NCBI GenBank assembly: GCA_015063005.1 | Contig: SUTF01000004.1 | Location: 23,497 to 55,496 of the forward strand | Length of the DNA stretch: 32,000 nucleotides | From: Methanobrevibacter millerae | GTDB taxonomy: Archaea > Methanobacteriota > Methanobacteria > Methanobacteriales > Methanobacteriaceae | Reading direction: 5' to 3' | Part shown: piece after piece, positions 24,666 through 30,600 of the stretch | Layout: every line of letters starts with the position of its first letter | Position numbering within the stretch: position 1 is the first letter of the stretch | The notes under the pieces: generated by a model | Databases searched by the model: none | What the model saw: only the letters and a program-made list of their open reading frames with translations | Told to the model about the DNA's origin: nothing | Translations under genes and position numbers: made by a program

Positions 24666-25505
24666 TTATCCCCCTCCAGGAATGGTATACTTATCGTTAA
24701 CCCCATAGAATATTCCATCCCCTTTTCGTTTTTCGCTTACATTCAATAATGCATTATTGAATATAATATTTAATAGTTTATATCCATCCTTATCAATTAA
24801 ATCTGTTAATGGAGAGTTATTTTCCCTTATGCCTAATGCATCTTTTTCAATGTCAAAGCATGATGCATACAATATTTGAGATGAATTTTCCAAAGCAGAT
24901 TCAGGAGGATATTTCTCAGTCAAATCTTTTGACTTTAAATAATCTTGGAAGTTTTTCCACTCTTTTTTAATTTCCTTTCCTTTGCTTGTTAATTTACCAT
25001 TTTCAAGGATATCTTTATAATTATTGCCATCATATCCATTTTCATTTTCAATAGCTTTAGCAAAGTCCATTAAATCATTTTCGAACTTATTGGCAACTGA
25101 AGAATTGTTACCCTGCTTTGCCATTGATTTTAAATTGAATTTTTTATTTTTGTTCATGTTTTTAAGCAAGTTAATAGCTAATGATTCTGAAGTTTTTAAC
25201 TCACCTTTATTTGCGATTCTAAGCGTTATTTTTTTCATTACTTCCATATCTTGTGGAGTTAATTTTTTTCCAACTTCATGAGAGTCATCCAAATCTATGT
25301 CACATTTGATTTGGTCTTTATTGATTAAATCAAGTATTGTAAGAGATAATGCATTCACACCTATCCCATTATTTTTTGAAAATAATATTGAAACCATAGG
25401 ATATGAATCATCACTTGGAGGATTTTTAATGTTTTCATCATATTTGTTATTGTTTAATCCTAACATATTTACCACATCACAAATATTTTTTTTATTAATC
25501 ACCAT
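24666..25505 (-). CDS. Hypothetical soluble protein; N-terminal segment reminiscent of the DUF2207 cytoplasmic region
   Basis: 279 aa with no hydrophobic helices. NPPSDDSYPMVSILFSKNNGIGVNALSLTILDLINKDQIKCDI resembles the PP..(P)a.vg.L......atlldLa.rG.i segment of DUF2207 proteins; this is from memory and weak. The protein ends in PGGG. Its ATG overlaps the upstream zinc-ribbon gene by 11 nt. Confidence 0.5.
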   Translation of the reverse strand: MVINKKNICDVVNMLGLNNNKYDENIKNPPSDDSYPMVSILFSKNNGIGVNALSLTILDLINKDQIKCDIDLDDSHEVGKKLTPQDMEVMKKITLRIANKGELKTSESLAINLLKNMNKNKKFNLKSMAKQGNNSSVANKFENDLMDFAKAIENENGYDGNNYKDILENGKLTSKGKEIKKEWKNFQDYLKSKDLTEKYPPESALENSSQILYASCFDIEKDALGIRENNSPLTDLIDKDGYKLLNIIFNNALLNVSEKRKGDGIFYGVNDKYTIPGGG

Positions 25506-25677
25506 TTTTTAAAGATTCAAGGTATGCTTCGCGAATTTCCTCAGCGAAATCATCGTTTCCTTCGACAATTGGTCCTGTGTAGTCACAGTCCTTGCAGACA
25601 CATTGTGACCAGTTTTGAGGAATAATCCAATCAATATTTTTAGATCCGCATCTTGGACAAATTTTATGCATTTTCAT
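25495..25677 (-). CDS. Small zinc-ribbon protein (60 aa)
   Basis: CPRCGSKN ... CKDCDY forms a four-Cys ribbon, followed by an acidic C-terminal helix. GGAGAT RBS lies 7 nt upstream of the ATG. Confidence 0.6.
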   Translation of the reverse strand: MKMHKICPRCGSKNIDWIIPQNWSQCVCKDCDYTGPIVEGNDDFAEEIREAYLESLKNGD

Positions 25678-25915: not shown

Positions 25916-27643
25916 TTAATTTTTAATGGTTATTACAGTACTGTTTAAACCTAATACCCTGGAGTAGCCAATTTCATCAGCAATTTTATTTAAAACACCA
26001 ATATTATCAAATTCAAGGTTTGGATTTTCAACTACAGGATTGAAGTCAATGCCAGTATCCTTAATAGAAATCAAAATATTATCTTCATTATTTCTAATGA
26101 TGACATCAATAGTATCGACATGTTCATTAATGTTAATGATATTTACTAACATTTCTTCAATAGCCAAGCTAACTAAAGTTACTGATTTATTGCCTTTCAG
26201 ATAATTTTGAACATTCTGAGCTAAATTAACCGCTTGTTTAACATCACCATTAATAGTATGTTCAAATACTTTTGAATCGTCATTATGCTTGTTAATGAAA
26301 AATCCAGAATATTCTCCATCAGTCTTTTTATTATAATATTTTGAATATGCAAATATGAATAATATGGTTAATAATTCAGCTATTGCAAATGAAATCCAAA
26401 TTCCATTTCCACCAATTGCAGAAGACAATATAACTGCTGCTGAAATTGGCAATACAAATCCTTCAAGCAATGAGATAATTGTTGATAATTGATTTTTTTG
26501 AATAGCTTGAGAATAAAAAGTATATAAAAATGTAATAGCAATACCAACATAGCTTATTGCAAATATTCTCAATGCATTTAATACAACAGGAACATCTGCA
26601 GGATTTTTAACACTATACAGGAACAATAAAGATTGAGGATAAACAATAAATAATACAGATAGTGCTAAACTTGAAGCAATGACAATTTTTAAAGATCTTT
26701 TAATTATATAATTGACTCCAGAATAGTCCTCTTCCTTAAAGTAAACGGATACGATTGGAGACATTGTTTGTGCAGTTCCAATCAAGAAAATATATAAAAT
26801 AAATAAACTGTTATAACAAATACTGAATGCGACAACACCTGATTTTCCTATATAAAGGCCTATTAAAAAGTTTATGATAAGTAACTTCAAAGTTAAGTAC
26901 AACTGGGTTGATGCTGATGAAAATCCTGATGTTACTATTTTTTTAAGGAAACTGAAGAACGAATTAATTTTCAATTTAATAAATTCTAATGTGCGCTCTT
27001 TTTTAAAGAAGTAATAAGAAATTAAGATAGATCCCACCAAATAACCTGTTGAAGTAGCATATGCTGCACCTGAAAGACCCATGCCAAATAAACTGATATA
27101 AATTACATCACAACAAATATTTACAAGATTTGCAATCAATATAGCCCTAAATGGCAATGTTGGAATACCATCTGCCCTTATGAAATAAGATAAACTCATC
27201 ATATAACATAAAAAAGGCATTCCGATAATTAAAGCAACAAAAAATTGATTAACATCATTGACTAAAGCAGGCTGTGAAGAACATAACAATTGAGCAATAT
27301 TGCCCGAAAACAGCAAACCAAAAATAGTAATCAATATTCCGATGGATATCAGTGAAATAATCGATACTGAAAAGTAACTATTACTTTTTTCTTCATCAAA
27401 TTCGGCTTTTGCAACAGAACAAAGTACACTACCACCTAATCCAATCATCCAGTAAATAAGATTGACAAATGTGATTACAGGAGCAACAATTTGAATCGGT
27501 GCAAGATTACCTGCACCAATCAAAAAACTTACAATCAGTCCATCTACAAAAATACAAATATTTCCTGCCATTGATGTAAATAATGTTGGCAGGAAAAATT
27601 CCCTAAATTTATTTTTTAACAGTTCATAGTTTCTTTCATACAT
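25916..27643 (-). CDS. MATE family efflux transporter with C-terminal GHKL/RsbW-like ATPase domain
   Basis: 575 aa. Residues 1-~435 are polytopic (about 12 hydrophobic helices) with the MATE-like N-terminus FFLPTLFTSMAGNICIFVDGLIVSFLIG. Residues ~458-575 (nt 25919-26272) are soluble. They carry LAIEEMLVNII (N-box-like E..N), IKDTGIDFNP (D-x-G-x-G-like) and GLNSTVITI, resembling anti-sigma-factor kinases of the SpoIIAB/RsbW type. Confidence 0.85.
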   Translation of the reverse strand: MYERNYELLKNKFREFFLPTLFTSMAGNICIFVDGLIVSFLIGAGNLAPIQIVAPVITFVNLIYWMIGLGGSVLCSVAKAEFDEEKSNSYFSVSIISLISIGILITIFGLLFSGNIAQLLCSSQPALVNDVNQFFVALIIGMPFLCYMMSLSYFIRADGIPTLPFRAILIANLVNICCDVIYISLFGMGLSGAAYATSTGYLVGSILISYYFFKKERTLEFIKLKINSFFSFLKKIVTSGFSSASTQLYLTLKLLIINFLIGLYIGKSGVVAFSICYNSLFILYIFLIGTAQTMSPIVSVYFKEEDYSGVNYIIKRSLKIVIASSLALSVLFIVYPQSLLFLYSVKNPADVPVVLNALRIFAISYVGIAITFLYTFYSQAIQKNQLSTIISLLEGFVLPISAAVILSSAIGGNGIWISFAIAELLTILFIFAYSKYYNKKTDGEYSGFFINKHNDDSKVFEHTINGDVKQAVNLAQNVQNYLKGNKSVTLVSLAIEEMLVNIININEHVDTIDVIIRNNEDNILISIKDTGIDFNPVVENPNLEFDNIGVLNKIADEIGYSRVLGLNSTVITIKN

Positions 27644-27649
27644 TGTTTA

Positions 27650-27654
27650 CCTCT
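27650..27654 (-). promoter_or_regulatory. RBS of the MATE gene overlapping the NRPS stop codon
   Basis: The minus strand reads TAGAGGTAAACAATG. GAGGT begins inside the NRPS TAG stop, and 5 nt separate it from the MATE ATG. This implies co-transcription and coupled translation. Confidence 0.6.
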
Positions 27655-30600
27655 AAATACTAAAAAAATCTAAATCATCCAAATATTTAATAAAATTATA
27701 TATGTATTCTTGTGATACAAACGGCCATTTAATACCTAAACGATACAACACCTGAATAGTATAAGTATTATCAACAGGTACCCAAATCTTTTTAACTTTT
27801 CCAGAACCTATTGAAGTAATTAGACCAGACACTCCGTCCTGTTTGGATTTATCTGCAAGAGCTTTATCTAAAGCAATTTCATATTCATTTTCTTCAGCAG
27901 GATCGATATTTAATCCTAAAGGTTTGATAATTTCAATTATATCTCCAAAGCAAACACGATGATAATCATATGGATGGAAAACATTGCATTCTTTAGGAGT
28001 TTTTGAAAGATTTACAATGGCCTTTGCAGTCGTGTCAATTGGTGAAAATTCCACATTGTTCATTAGCATTGAATAAGGCATTTTTCCTATTGTTATAAAT
28101 GCTTTTAAACGATTGATGAAACCGTTTGATTCAAAATTGATTTGGAATTCACTGTCTGAGCTTCTTGCCATCAAGTTTCCAACCCTCATTATTTTCACAT
28201 CCAAATCATCATTGATAGCTGCTTCCAGTACTGCGCGTTCTGCTAGGAATTTAGAATTGAGATATTGGTTATCTACAGCCTGACCAATAAATAAATCATT
28301 TTCTGAGAATTTAACATCAACGGGAGGATAATTGTTAATGCTTTCACCTGCAATACTGTATGTAGATACTTGAACATATTTTGCATCTTTCATTTTTGCA
28401 AATTTAAGTCCATTTATTACACCACCAAAGTTAATGTCTTCAATATCTGTTCCGGATGAGAAGTGTTTAACATTAGCCGCACAATTAATTATCGTATCAA
28501 TTTTTTCAGGAATAAGCTTTTCAAAGTCTTCAAAGTTAGTAATATCACCTTCAATTATATGCAATCTTTCATCAAACAAATCAGAATATTCATCGGAGAA
28601 GTAATAAAACAATAATGATTTCAATCTTTCTTCTCCATTCAATACTTTATTAGCTCTGATAAAACAGTAAACATCCCCAGTTTCATTATCAAGTATTTCA
28701 CGAAGCACATGTATTCCCAAAAATCCAGTAGCTCCAGTAAGTAAAATATTACCTAAACTATCCTGAATTTCACCATTAATAAGATTTTCAAGATTATTTT
28801 TCTTAAGCAATTCATTAATTTGAGAGTAATCATAGGACAATTCTTCTTTTTTCTCAAATGATTCATCAGATAAAATAAACTCTGCCAATGCTCTTGGCGT
28901 TGGATTTGAGAAAACATCACCATAGCTCAAATTATAATTTCTATTTAAAGCTTCCATTGTGATTTTAGTAACTAAAAGTGAAGTTCCACCAATTTCAAAG
29001 AAGTTATCTGTGGCGCTTACCTCATCCAGTCCCAAAATTTCTGCAAATAAACTGGCGAAGAATGCTTCAATATCATTTTCAGGAGCAACATATTCTGTAA
29101 TTAAAACTGGTTCAGGCAAGTTCCTCAAGTCTGTTTTACCATTTACTGTTTGAGGCATTTCATCAAGTTCCATGTAAACAGTTGGAACCATATAATATAC
29201 CAATTTTTCAGCAAGTGATGCTTTTAAATCATCAATATTAATGGAATATCCATTTTCTTCACGATTTTCATCTTTGTACTCATCATGAACCGTGAAGTAG
29301 GCACATAAATGATCATTTCCTTTAATCTTTTTAACAACAACAGCAACTGATTTTATTCCAGGGAATTTTGAAAGGCCCACTTCAATTTCACCTATTTCAA
29401 TTCTTAAACCTCTAAGCTTAATTTGATTATCCATTCTTCCGAATACATAATAATTTCCATCTTCCGTGACTTTAACAAAGTCTCCTGAACGATAGAATCT
29501 GACTCCATTAATGACTTCATAGCTTTCAGCATTTTTCTCAGGCCGGTTTAAATATTCCCTTGAAACACCTTTTCCAGCAATATATAATTCCCCAATAACA
29601 TTTGGAGGCAATGGATTTGAATCAAAGTCCATAACCATTTCATGAACATTGAATAGCTCCTTACCAATGTGAATATCTGAGCTTTCCAACAGGTGCCCAT
29701 TACAATAAACTGTTGTTTCTGTTGGTCCATACATATTAAAGAATTTTCCGTTAGAATTTTTGGAAAGCAATTCATATAATCTTGCTGAGAAGGGTTCACC
29801 AGCATGAATATATACTTTAAAACCATACATCGTTTCTTGCATTGCTTCAATTTCCAAATATTGGAGTAAACGTGAAGGTGTAGCGATGTAAACATTTGCT
29901 CCAGACCTATGAATCAAATTCATCATTTCAATTGGATCCTTGTATTCTGTATCATCAGCAAATACCATTGGAACTCCATTCAATAAAGATCCCATTAATT
30001 CCTGCTGGAATACATCAAATGCTACAGTTGTAGTAGATAATACTTTATAATTTTCTTTTTCAAGATTGTGCACTAATTCATAAGTACAAACATTTCTAGG
30101 GTCAGGATATGCGAAGTTTGCAATGTTTCCATGCTCCAAAATTACTCCTTTTGGAAGTCCGGTTGAACCTGAAGTGTAAATCAGATAAGCCATATTATTT
30201 GCATGCACATCAGGATTAGGATTTGAAGTGTCTTCTTCTTTTAACAATTCATTAACATCCAATAAATTATTAGAGCATGTAGATAAATCAATACCTTTTT
30301 TATCAACTACATCATCAACAATAATAAATTTTGATTCACTATCAGTTAAAACATGCTCAATTCTTTCTGTAGGATATTCTGAGTCCACAGGAATAAATGC
30401 AGCACCTGATTTTAAAATACCAAACACTGACGCCATTACATTACTATTCCTGTTTAATATAAACATTATTCTATCTTCAGGACAAACACCTTTTTTAATA
30501 AGACTATGGGCAATCCTATTTGCCTTTTCATTTAACTGTGAATATGTAAACTCACCATCACTGGCATATAAAATAACCCTATCAGGATGCAATTCCACCT

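Follow-up and report, generated by a model that had tools for sequence, protein, structure and literature searches.

The window, i.e., the whole 32,000-nucleotide stretch of Methanobrevibacter millerae DNA that was analysed, carries on its reverse strand the 3′ part of a non-ribosomal peptide synthetase (NRPS) gene and, immediately behind it, a gene in which a MATE exporter is continued by a soluble GHKL domain (Table 1). The NRPS stop codon (TAG, 27655-27653) is separated by 9 nt (AGGTAAACA) from the MATE ATG (27643-27641), and a GAGGT Shine–Dalgarno sequence (27653-27649) shares the last base of that stop and leaves a 5-nt spacer to the ATG, just as the original prediction had read the junction. 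The start codon is correctly placed, because the N-terminus of the fusion protein is conserved across the family from residue 4 on (R4, N5, L8, and K12). The tight coupling of the two genes, which had also been proposed, is a conserved trait: an NRPS-to-MATE gap of −4 to +14 nt is the rule in 70 bacterial loci, and in 17 bacterial loci NRPS and MATE share 4 nt.

Table 1. Features of the NRPS–MATE-GHKL locus, with positions in the window.
Feature	Position	Strand	Basis
MATE-GHKL fusion gene (575 aa + stop)	25916..27643	-	ORF list, translation
MATE core (aa 1-440), 12 transmembrane helices, DinF/PfMATE-like	26324..27643	-	Pfam, NCBIfam, Foldseek
Linker of 18 aa (aa 441-458), last transmembrane helix to soluble domain	26270..26323	-	AF2
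RsbW/SpoIIAB-like GHKL (Bergerat-fold) domain (aa 459-575)	25919..26269	-	Foldseek, HATPase_c_2, free-kinase identity
N box EEMLVN (aa 496-501), kept	26141..26158	-	Alignment of tails
G1 box DTGIDFNP (aa 529-536), kept	26036..26059	-	Alignment of tails
Degenerate G2 box FDNIGV (aa 545-550) after shortened ATP lid	25994..26011	-	Tail/kinase comparison
Tail-specific signature YSRVLGLNST (aa 560-569)	25937..25966	-	Alignment of tails
NRPS–MATE junction	27641..27655	-	Bases read in sequence
NRPS, C-terminal 1448 aa of 2606 aa	27653..32000	-	Pfam Condensation, AMP-binding, PP-binding, NAD_binding_4

The part of the NRPS inside the window has the order C-A-T-R. The complete protein, whose ORF in the genome spans C1:51149-58969 and starts outside the window at C1:58969, reads C-A-T-C-A-T-R when both halves are compared with Pfam, which matches the domain order of the reductase-terminated NRPSs of gut bacteria. 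The clusters with reductase-terminated NRPSs that Guo et al. described in gut Clostridia in 2017 (cited in PMC12282076) reportedly lead to dipeptide aldehydes and pyrazinones; as at the present locus, their synthetases are bimodular C-A-T-C-A-T-R enzymes from gut or rumen anaerobes. Bacterial relatives of the pump itself sit behind reductase-terminated NRPSs in Lachnospiraceae, Ruminococcus, and others. Judged from the adjacent synthetase, the MATE-GHKL protein would be an exporter dedicated to whatever the bimodular, reductase-terminated NRPS upstream of it produces. A comparable pump dedicated to an assembly-line product is ClbM (PDB 4z3n), a MATE protein that serves as exporter in the NRPS-PKS pathway of colibactin, although ClbM lacks the C-terminal soluble domain that the pump described here carries.

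The MATE core matches Pfam MatE in two stretches (6e-23) as well as NCBIfam MATE models, and the two MatE repeats form the transmembrane helices, which extend up to aa 440 in the AF2 model of the full-length protein (pLDDT 84, pTM 0.80). A Foldseek search aligns the core with PfMATE (6hfb/4mlb, TMt 0.82-0.83) and DinF-BH (0.84), and ClbM is also matched. The original prediction had placed a soluble domain of ~118 aa directly after this core; the domain is present, but its structured part starts only at ~aa 459 (nt 26269), past the linker. In the AF2 model of the tail alone the first 13 residues have pLDDT values <50, and in the full-length model secondary structure restarts at E459.

That the tail is an RsbW/SpoIIAB-type GHKL domain, as had been suggested from three short motifs, is borne out by a profile match, by its fold, and by its homology to a free RsbW-like kinase encoded 8 kb away. 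The isolated tail matches HATPase_c_2 with an E-value of 4.9e-5 and 23.8 bits, under the Pfam gathering score of 27.4, and 32 of 46 diverse full-length relatives match the same profile at E<0.01 (best 1.3e-14). Searching PDB sequences with the single tail sequence returned only noise, and a search with a profile of 25 tails returned weak matches, every one of them GHKL. The identity of the tail is settled by the fold search rather than by these sequence searches: modelled by AF2 (pLDDT 80.6), the tail adopts the Bergerat alpha/beta sandwich, and its top 20 Foldseek matches are exclusively anti-sigma kinases (SpoIIAB, UsfX, and RsbW), among them 1th8_A (E 4e-7), 8ih8, 8jzt, and 6m36/6m37, with TM-scores of 0.6-0.78 and a probability of 1.00. 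Aligned over its whole length, the tail is 31% identical to the free kinase of its own locus.

The three motifs themselves are real and fall at the N box, the G1 box, and a C-terminal strand (LGLNST). The N-box residues E55, E56, and N60 and the G1-box residues D88, G90, F93, and P95 (tail numbering) are invariant in 36 diverse tails, and among Methanobrevibacter orthologues EExxxN is found in 193 of 195 and D-x-G-x-x-F-N-P in all 195. The third ATP-binding element is missing: GG(L/F)G occurs in all 37 free kinases compared (36 from the loci and that of the genome itself) and in none of the 36 tails, which instead read (S/G/T)GIxL, or FDNI(S/G)V in Methanobrevibacter, at the G2 position, and the ATP lid of the free kinases is 6-11 aa longer than that of the tails. 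Despite the lost GGLG and the shorter lid, EExxxN and DxGxxF(N/D)P are kept in all 36 tails. The C-terminal strands differ as well, as Y119, R121, and N126 (tail numbering) are invariant in tails, whereas the free kinases have Y-x-Y...G-x-N. Because it lacks the G2 box and has a shortened lid, the tail is probably not an active Ser kinase. That Glu and Asn of the N box, and Asp and Gly of the G1 box, are constant across the deep divergence between Bacillota and archaea, and that most relatives match HATPase_c_2, would also suit a tail that is an active, atypical Ser/Thr kinase of the STAS protein, the pump, or the NRPS, and thus a second, membrane-anchored kinase. This explanation is nevertheless improbable, since every tail has lost, and every free kinase of the same loci has kept, the G2 box that holds the ATP phosphates, since one paralogue in the genome retains the domain without any of the boxes, and since a separate intact kinase is encoded alongside.

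A frameshift or missed stop that joined a MATE gene to a small, separate RsbW-like gene would explain the fusion trivially, but its probability is negligible: no support for such an artefact was found, and hundreds of assemblies made independently, archaeal as well as bacterial, contain the fused frame. A single frame of ~575-630 aa that holds MATE and tail is present in more than 190 Methanobrevibacter proteins and in other Methanobacteriaceae genomes, and the fusion recurs in 58 of the 201 Methanobacteriaceae genomes and at no fewer than 513 loci in Bacillota. In 80 Bacillota loci, which were gathered with a narrower bacterial tail alignment and are biased towards one bacterial query, the ORF is fused in 79; the bacterial lineages nearest to the archaeal clade are probably under-sampled among them. 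A profile search with 46 full-length proteins was dominated by near-identical Methanobrevibacter entries and added no taxa. The architecture is therefore not rare and represents the normal exporter of a large family of NRPS clusters in gut and rumen Bacillota and in Methanobacteriaceae. Those relatives that exceed the HATPase_c_2 threshold must already appear as MatE+HATPase_c_2 in domain databases, and no paper describing the MATE-GHKL fusion was found. In an unrooted tree of 38 full-length pumps, every archaeal copy, among them the three paralogues in the genome, falls on one side of a branch (100/97); the direction of transfer cannot be read from the tree because it is unrooted. Two metagenomic proteins in which the tail appeared to be fused to adenylation domains (P0250 and P0198) have no more than short stretches of AMP-binding and probably represent chimeric or truncated gene calls. 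A further entry, P0152, is a partial MATE.

The partner-switching genes that had been expected beyond the window lie just outside it, in one three-gene unit divergent from the NRPS that encodes a STAS protein (2e-16), an RsbW-type kinase (HATPase_c_2, 1e-12), and a PP2C phosphatase (SpoIIE, 3.5e-46). The 99-aa STAS protein carries, in the motif YISSAGL, a Ser aligned with S58 of SpoIIAA, the free kinase has 125 aa, and the PP2C is a polytopic membrane protein, so the full set of a phosphorylatable STAS protein, a kinase, and a phosphatase occurs together. The motif pattern of the 125-aa kinase favours phosphorylation of the STAS protein by this enzyme, and that of the tail argues against it. 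Elsewhere in the genome there are two more long MATE proteins, making three in all (575, 573, and 563 aa), each behind one of three NRPS genes, and six other MATEs (440-467 aa) without a tail. The genome has no more than two STAS genes, one free kinase, and one PP2C, all of them located at NRPS clusters. Each STAS gene belongs to a cluster whose tail keeps the N and G1 boxes; the third tail has lost all motifs, keeps the domain, and has no STAS gene of its own. Binding and inhibition of a sigma factor, the property that marks the anti-sigma kinase class, has no counterpart in this Methanobrevibacter host: archaea, to our knowledge, have no bacterial sigma factors, and the clusters examined showed no sigma gene. 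By census and synteny, the MATE tail is the only candidate for the exchanged output partner.

The neighbourhood is conserved in bacteria and archaea alike. Among the 79 bacterial loci with a fused ORF, a large NRPS lies directly upstream in 70; STAS genes were found in 50 bacterial loci, PP2C genes in 43, and in 35 of the 79 a kinase was detected, either free or fused to PP2C. Of 53 STAS genes, 38 directly abut a MATE gene, often with overlap. STAS genes are present in 52 of 58 Methanobacteriaceae genomes with the tail versus 27 of 143 without it, and in at least 20 Methanobacteriaceae genomes a STAS gene starts ~40-350 nt from the end of the tail. The linkage has exceptions: in 29 of 79 bacterial loci no STAS gene lies in the flanks fetched, five genomes with such STAS-less flanks contain STAS, kinase, and PP2C modules that are unlinked, and no STAS match at E<=1e-5 was obtained in six tail-bearing archaeal genomes. 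Some Methanobacteriaceae possess STAS and PP2C modules without any MATE tail, which shows that these modules also have other outputs.

This distribution bears on what the tail binds. A tail that senses ATP/ADP and, without involvement of STAS, adjusts export to the cellular energy state would account for loci without a nearby STAS gene and for the retention of adenine- and Mg-binding residues alongside the loss of the catalytic lid; the strong STAS synteny with its frequent gene overlap, and the motif-less third paralogue, in which the domain persists without a nucleotide pocket, leave this proposal with little likelihood. The NRPS is the most constant neighbour of all, often overlapping the MATE gene, and each long MATE of the genome stands behind one, as would be expected if the tail docked the synthetase, for example its terminal reductase domain, and a reactive aldehyde product were passed straight to the pump. 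Such docking is hardly probable, however, as adjacency to the NRPS is equally expected of any dedicated exporter, no example of a GHKL domain that binds an NRPS domain was found, and the nearest structural relatives of the tail are all STAS- or sigma-binding proteins.

A third possibility starts from the free kinase. The tail is closely paralogous to the free kinase, anti-sigma GHKL kinases exist only as dimers, and in a monomeric pump the dimer face of the tail would stay unsatisfied. The tail could thus be a pseudo-protomer that heterodimerises with a free RsbW-like kinase, so that the pump is what the kinase sequesters, as a sigma factor would be, and STAS competes with the tail for the kinase in the manner of a canonical partner switch, or the tail could anchor the kinase near the membrane PP2C. 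The detection of a kinase in nearly half of the bacterial loci is consistent with this idea, but the number of STAS genes, not that of kinases, equals the number of intact-box tails in the genome, MATE genes are abutted or overlapped by STAS genes rather than kinase genes, and the tail-invariant Y-x-R-x-L-x-x-N-x-T differs from the kinases on the last strands. It is an unlikely explanation, if somewhat less so than the active kinase, the energy sensor, or NRPS docking.

The reading we favour, to which we would give an even chance, is that STAS docks on the tail, a kinase paralogue with impaired catalysis, and that the exporter is the output of a partner switch operating without a sigma factor. 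The polytopic membrane PP2C would dephosphorylate the 99-aa STAS protein, and the free RsbW-like kinase would phosphorylate it at the Ser equivalent to SpoIIAA S58. Unphosphorylated STAS would then dock on the kinase-like tail of the pump and stay bound, because the tail would be unable to phosphorylate it, and this binding would alter MATE activity so that export is turned on or off. In an organism without sigma factors, the exporter would in this way fill the place that the sigma factor holds in Bacillus. The phosphorylation switch would probably act on export itself and not on transcription, with the signal received by the transporter. Several observations speak against STAS docking. The shortened lid is part of the surface by which SpoIIAB holds SpoIIAA, and docking may be altered; the N and G1 boxes do not vary at all, which points to a continuing need to bind nucleotide and to a tail that is more than a passive platform; and RsbW-type proteins act as dimers, while MATE pumps are usually monomers. 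The STAS-less bacterial flanks, the tail-bearing archaeal genomes without a STAS match, and the tail-less STAS/PP2C modules also count against it. The wider proposal, that a STAS/kinase/phosphatase switch gates MATE export of a non-ribosomal peptide post-translationally, that it is common to hundreds of gut and rumen Bacillota, and that it was carried with the cluster into methanogens, falls slightly short of an even chance.

The module resembles SpoIIAB-SpoIIAA-SpoIIE and RsbW-RsbV-RsbU/P of Bacillus in its STAS protein with a phosphorylatable Ser, its RsbW-type kinase, and its PP2C, and the fold of the tail is that of SpoIIAB and RsbW. In contrast to the Bacillus modules, no sigma factor is present, and an extra kinase-like domain, without a G2 box and with a short lid, forms one polypeptide with a transporter. 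UsfX (8ih8 and 8jzt), the anti-sigma-F factor of M. tuberculosis with the antagonists RsfA and RsfB, ranks among the best structural matches to the tail; 8ih8 shows it in complex with its STAS partner RsfB. UsfX does not act as a kinase but, as an anti-sigma factor, still binds STAS antagonists, which is what the tail is proposed to do; it is, however, a free, dimeric, sigma-holding protein, whereas the tail is part of a membrane transporter. Partner switches with non-sigma outputs include HsbR/HsbA in Pseudomonas, SypE/SypA in Vibrio fischeri, BtrU/V/W in Bordetella, and RsbW/RsbV in Chlamydia, in which the output is biofilm formation, motility, or type III secretion; we know of none among them with a kinase-like partner fused to a secondary transporter. 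STAS domains are also known to control transporters, as in the C-terminal STAS domain of SulP/SLC26 proteins and in MlaB on the MlaFEDB ABC transporter (PMC7367683). In these systems, as here, a part of the STAS/anti-sigma toolkit sits on a transporter for post-translational control, but SulP/SLC26 and MlaFEDB carry or bind the STAS side, whereas the present transporter carries the anti-sigma (GHKL) side and STAS is free.

If the STAS-docking reading is true, direct gating of an efflux pump, instead of sigma-factor release, would be a new class of partner-switching output, and it would explain the role of partner-switching modules in archaea, which have no sigma factors as far as we know. The cassette is the standard accessory of a large gut and rumen NRPS family that makes peptide-aldehyde-type products, which cultures rarely yield easily, and the control of export by a membrane-sensor phosphatase and STAS would offer handles for activation, namely phosphosite mutants, activation of the phosphatase, and deletion of the tail.

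In rumen methanogens, the locus would then mark a regulated system for the export of secondary metabolites. A locus of the same type is mru0066-mru0071 of Methanobrevibacter ruminantium M1, which comprises an NRPS, MatE, an anti-sigma-factor antagonist, and serine phosphatases, and for which roles in sensing, regulation, and export were proposed (Leahy et al. 2010, PMC2812497). In that paper MatE is a plain efflux protein and a kinase-like tail is unmentioned; the synthetase mru0068 is described as ending in a thioesterase (PMC2812497), whereas the NRPS of the present locus ends in a reductase. The corresponding M. ruminantium genes respond to a membrane-active inhibitor: the MatE genes mru_0069 and mru_0352 are expressed and are upregulated ~2-3 fold with lauric acid (PMC5816558).

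In the source genome (2.16 Mb, 20 contigs), the MATE–GHKL fusion protein, referred to here as the pump, follows an NRPS of 2606 aa with the domain order C-A-T-C-A-T-R, as determined by Pfam for the whole protein. The translational coupling of the two genes through a ribosome-binding site overlapping the NRPS stop, as originally predicted, is borne out by the sequence: nine bases separate the stop from the pump ATG, and the stop shares its last base with GAGGT, which is complementary to the anti-Shine–Dalgarno end of methanogen 16S rRNA. A 60-aa ORF overlaps the gene of a 279-aa DUF2207_C-like protein (Pfam 3.6e-17) at 24666–25677, also on the minus strand and 240 nt 3′ of the pump stop; the pair may belong to the operon.

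Features of the pump locus (window positions unless stated; C1, contig, on which the window spans C1:23497–55496; L006, source-genome region around the NRPS cluster; PP2C, SpoIIE-type phosphatase)
Feature	Position	Strand or orientation	Description
Pump ORF	ATG 27643 to stop 25916	minus	575 codons
NRPS stop TAG	27655–27653	minus	frame open at the window edge, upstream of the pump
GAGGT	27653–27649	minus	shares one base with the NRPS stop; 5 nt 5′ of the pump ATG
Linker	between MATE core and tail		18 residues
Tail	aa 459–575		compact alpha/beta domain
STAS protein		divergent from NRPS	99 aa; Pfam 2e-16
Free kinase		divergent from NRPS	125 aa; HATPase_c_2 1e-12
PP2C	L006:7128–8996 = C1:60127–61995, 4.6 kb past window end		622 aa; SpoIIE/PP2C 3.5e-46

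Residues 1–440 of the pump comprise a MATE transporter with two MatE repeats (Pfam, 6e-23), which is also matched by NCBIfam MATE models. The AF2 model of the full-length protein (pLDDT 84, pTM 0.80) contains twelve long helices, and its core superimposes on PfMATE and DinF-BH with TMt values of 0.82–0.84 in Foldseek, in which the last 135 residues are covered by no solved MATE structure. The expected HATPase match of the isolated tail was obtained with HATPase_c_2 at an E-value of 4.9e-5, although its 23.8 bits lie under the Pfam cut-off of 27.4. The fold is more telling. All 20 of the best PDB matches of the tail model (pLDDT 80.6; 36 diverse homologues as input) are anti-sigma-factor kinases, with E-values from 4e-7 upward and TM-scores of 0.6–0.78, including SpoIIAB (1th8, 1l0o, 1til, 1tid), UsfX (8ih8, 8jzt), and RsbW (6m36, 6m37), and sensor histidine kinases follow at three orders of magnitude weaker. 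Because of these matches, the tail is assigned to the SpoIIAB/RsbW type, as had been proposed.

The fusion is neither an artefact nor rare. A frameshift that joins a separate ORF to the MATE gene is ruled out, since the same single frame recurs in more than 190 Methanobrevibacter proteins (574–581 aa), in 58 of the 201 Methanobacteriaceae genomes sampled (18 of the 27 genera; 572–620 aa in nearly all cases), and in 79 of 80 bacterial loci (582–630 aa when complete). With the tail as query, exhaustive HMMER searching matched 249 clusters (50% identity); many of the matched proteins are 565–598 aa long, with the tail match at positions of about 440–590, and among 46 full-length proteins of this set MatE is present in all and HATPase_c_2 in 32 (best 1.3e-14). 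When a single genome of each prokaryote species was scanned for the pattern, at least 513 MATE–tail loci were confirmed, of which the best 80 all belong to gut or rumen Bacillota and allies (Lachnospiraceae, Ruminococcus, Erysipelotrichaceae, Christensenellales, Monoglobus, Selenomonadales, and one Acholeplasmatales MAG). Two short metagenomic proteins from the HMMER search, P0250 and P0198, carry the tail domain behind an adenylation-domain fragment; chimeric or truncated gene calls are the probable cause, a rare A-domain–tail fusion being the less probable reading.

An alignment compared 36 tails with 37 kinases, either free or PP2C-fused, from the same kinds of loci. Both groups conserve (D/E)E-x3-N at the N box and D/N-x-G-x-x-F/Y-D/N-P at the G1 box. 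At the G2 box, GG(L/F)G is found in every free kinase, along with a lid of roughly 17 residues, whereas in every tail the lid is 6–11 residues shorter, and bacterial tails show (S/G/T)G-I-x-L at the G2 position and Methanobrevibacter tails FDNI(S/G)V; the Gly of FDNIGV in the present tail is not conserved, being Ser in most orthologues. Tails also carry an invariant signature of their own, Y-x-R-x-L-x-x-N-x-T. Since the G2 box and lid are reduced in all aligned tails, the sequences identify the tail and the cluster's kinase as paralogues, the tail having systematically lost the region that binds the ATP phosphates but with its adenine and Mg pocket kept under strong constraint. The tail is thus probably not catalytic, and residual kinase activity, with which the retained N and G1 boxes would be compatible, is improbable given the altered G2 box and lid.

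As anticipated, partner-switching genes lie just outside the window, where STAS, free kinase (a separate RsbW-like protein), and PP2C form a unit of three overlapping genes, divergent from the NRPS. When aligned with SpoIIAA, the STAS protein has a Ser at the phosphorylated S58 position, within the motif YISSAGL. The PP2C begins with about 315 aa containing roughly eight hydrophobic or transmembrane segments, which have no Pfam match and are presumed to be the membrane sensor of the switch; similar PP2C proteins of 630–720 aa are encoded at related archaeal and bacterial loci, the bacterial ones often being kinase-fused. Genes 3′ of the PP2C (L006:9288–12730), encoding a TetR-family regulator, a prephenate-dehydrogenase-like protein, a 4HBT thioesterase, and an LCM-type methyltransferase, may be part of the biosynthetic cluster.

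In a whole-genome census, three NRPS genes (2606, 3617, and 7211 aa) were each directly followed by a long MATE gene (575, 573, and 563 aa), and the remaining six MATE genes (440–467 aa) have no tail. Every partner-switching part is located at an NRPS cluster: two STAS genes, the second just 5′ of the 3617-aa NRPS, one PP2C, and one free kinase, besides which RsbW-like domains occur only in the pump tails. The tail is unlikely to heterodimerise with this single kinase, whose fold it shares, as each STAS gene pairs with one box-retaining tail. In the third paralogue the tail domain persists without the N and G1 boxes (NK..D replaces EE..N; KYEG with a deletion at G1), and no STAS gene lies near its cluster. 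This persistence, together with the synteny of STAS and MATE genes, makes it rather implausible that the tail senses nucleotide independently of STAS, a role that the conserved pocket would allow. The third cluster (contig C18:20447–43774) lies outside the window, with its MATE gene at L007:11448–13139 and an aldo/keto reductase gene 3′ of it.

Similar cassettes occur widely. Among the 80 bacterial loci, an NRPS lies directly 5′ on the same strand in 70, most commonly with a 4-nt overlap; this adjacency would suit a tail that docks the NRPS, but it is equally expected of any dedicated exporter, and such a role is unlikely for a domain whose nearest structural relatives all bind STAS proteins or sigma factors. 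Small STAS genes are present in 50 loci and PP2C genes in 43, fused in 20 of these to an RsbW-like kinase. Of 53 STAS genes, 28 begin at most 120 nt from where a MATE–tail gene ends, 10 lie immediately 5′ of the MATE gene, and 10 precede the NRPS; five genomes without STAS at the locus have STAS with kinase or PP2C modules elsewhere. Two loci (L048, L078), unlike nearly all others, have no NRPS match within 8.6 kb upstream; they may be real exceptions, or the sequence there may be masked. Ten Lachnospiraceae loci (L041, L050, L056, L061, L062, L067, L070, L071, L085, L086) carry a second long MATE gene (584–602 aa), 0.1–1.5 kb 3′ of the first and with STAS directly 5′, and therefore two tailed pumps per cluster; PP2C and free kinase lie further 3′.

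In Methanobacteriaceae, STAS matches were found in 52 of 58 tail-bearing genomes versus 27 of 143 without the tail, and PP2C in 49 of 58 versus 38 of 143, counts that are descriptive only, given the non-independence of related genomes. STAS starts about 40–350 nt past the tail in at least 20 archaeal genomes and is followed there by a PP2C of about 650 aa. As STAS–PP2C pairs also exist in some Methanobacteriaceae without a MATE tail, such modules do not occur solely with the pump. Several tail-less genomes (G188, G139, G086, G146, G125, and others) have a different, smaller pair, with a PP2C of about 460 aa and STAS 1–3 kb away; methanogens therefore have further sigma-less partner-switch-like modules.

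The inventory comprises a phosphosite-bearing STAS protein, a single kinase, a single phosphatase with a presumed membrane sensor, and an exporter that carries a kinase-like domain, with no sigma factor. In the proposed mechanism, the exporter would be the output of the switch: dephosphorylated STAS would bind the pump tail and, because the tail could not phosphorylate it, the complex would persist and alter pump activity, until phosphorylation of unbound STAS by the free kinase reset the system. UsfX, which has the SpoIIAB/RsbW fold and acts as an anti-sigma factor, binds STAS partners without known kinase activity, the behaviour proposed for the tail, of which it is among the best structural matches. 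This precedent, the fold and motif pattern of the tail, the one-to-one pairing, and the often overlapping STAS and MATE genes lead us to hold, with moderate confidence, that STAS binding gates the exporter. The partner-switching interpretation is supported by fold and gene neighbourhood, as a variant of a known system with a transporter-fused, degenerate anti-sigma-like receiver; a phosphorylating tail is the part that probably falls away.

The nearest published STAS protein regulating a transporter, and in this respect alike, is MlaB on MlaFEDB (PMC7367683); the full-text literature searched, mostly outside subscription journals, held no description of a MATE fusion with an anti-sigma-like domain. 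The M. ruminantium neighbourhood described in the original prediction agrees with Leahy et al. 2010 (PMC2812497), who described an NRPS, a MatE protein, an anti-sigma antagonist, and serine phosphatases around mru0068 and proposed roles in sensing, regulation, and export. The MatE protein was taken there as an ordinary efflux protein, whereas the MATE protein described here has a kinase-like tail. Lauric acid modestly induces mru_0069, mru_0352, and mru_0351 (RNA-seq; PMC5816558).

Maximum-likelihood analysis of 38 full-length pumps places the ten archaeal ones, including all three paralogues of this genome, on one side of a branch with support of 100/97, and the closest bacterial sequence is that of a Bacillota MAG (L075). 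The tree gives no direction of transfer, as it is unrooted and its bacterial sample is biased; a bacterial donor and an archaeal recipient make the simpler reading because the pump is widespread in Bacillota and patchy (29%) in Methanobacteriaceae. A bacterial origin has likewise been suggested for the M. ruminantium NRPS genes by Leahy et al. (PMC2812497).
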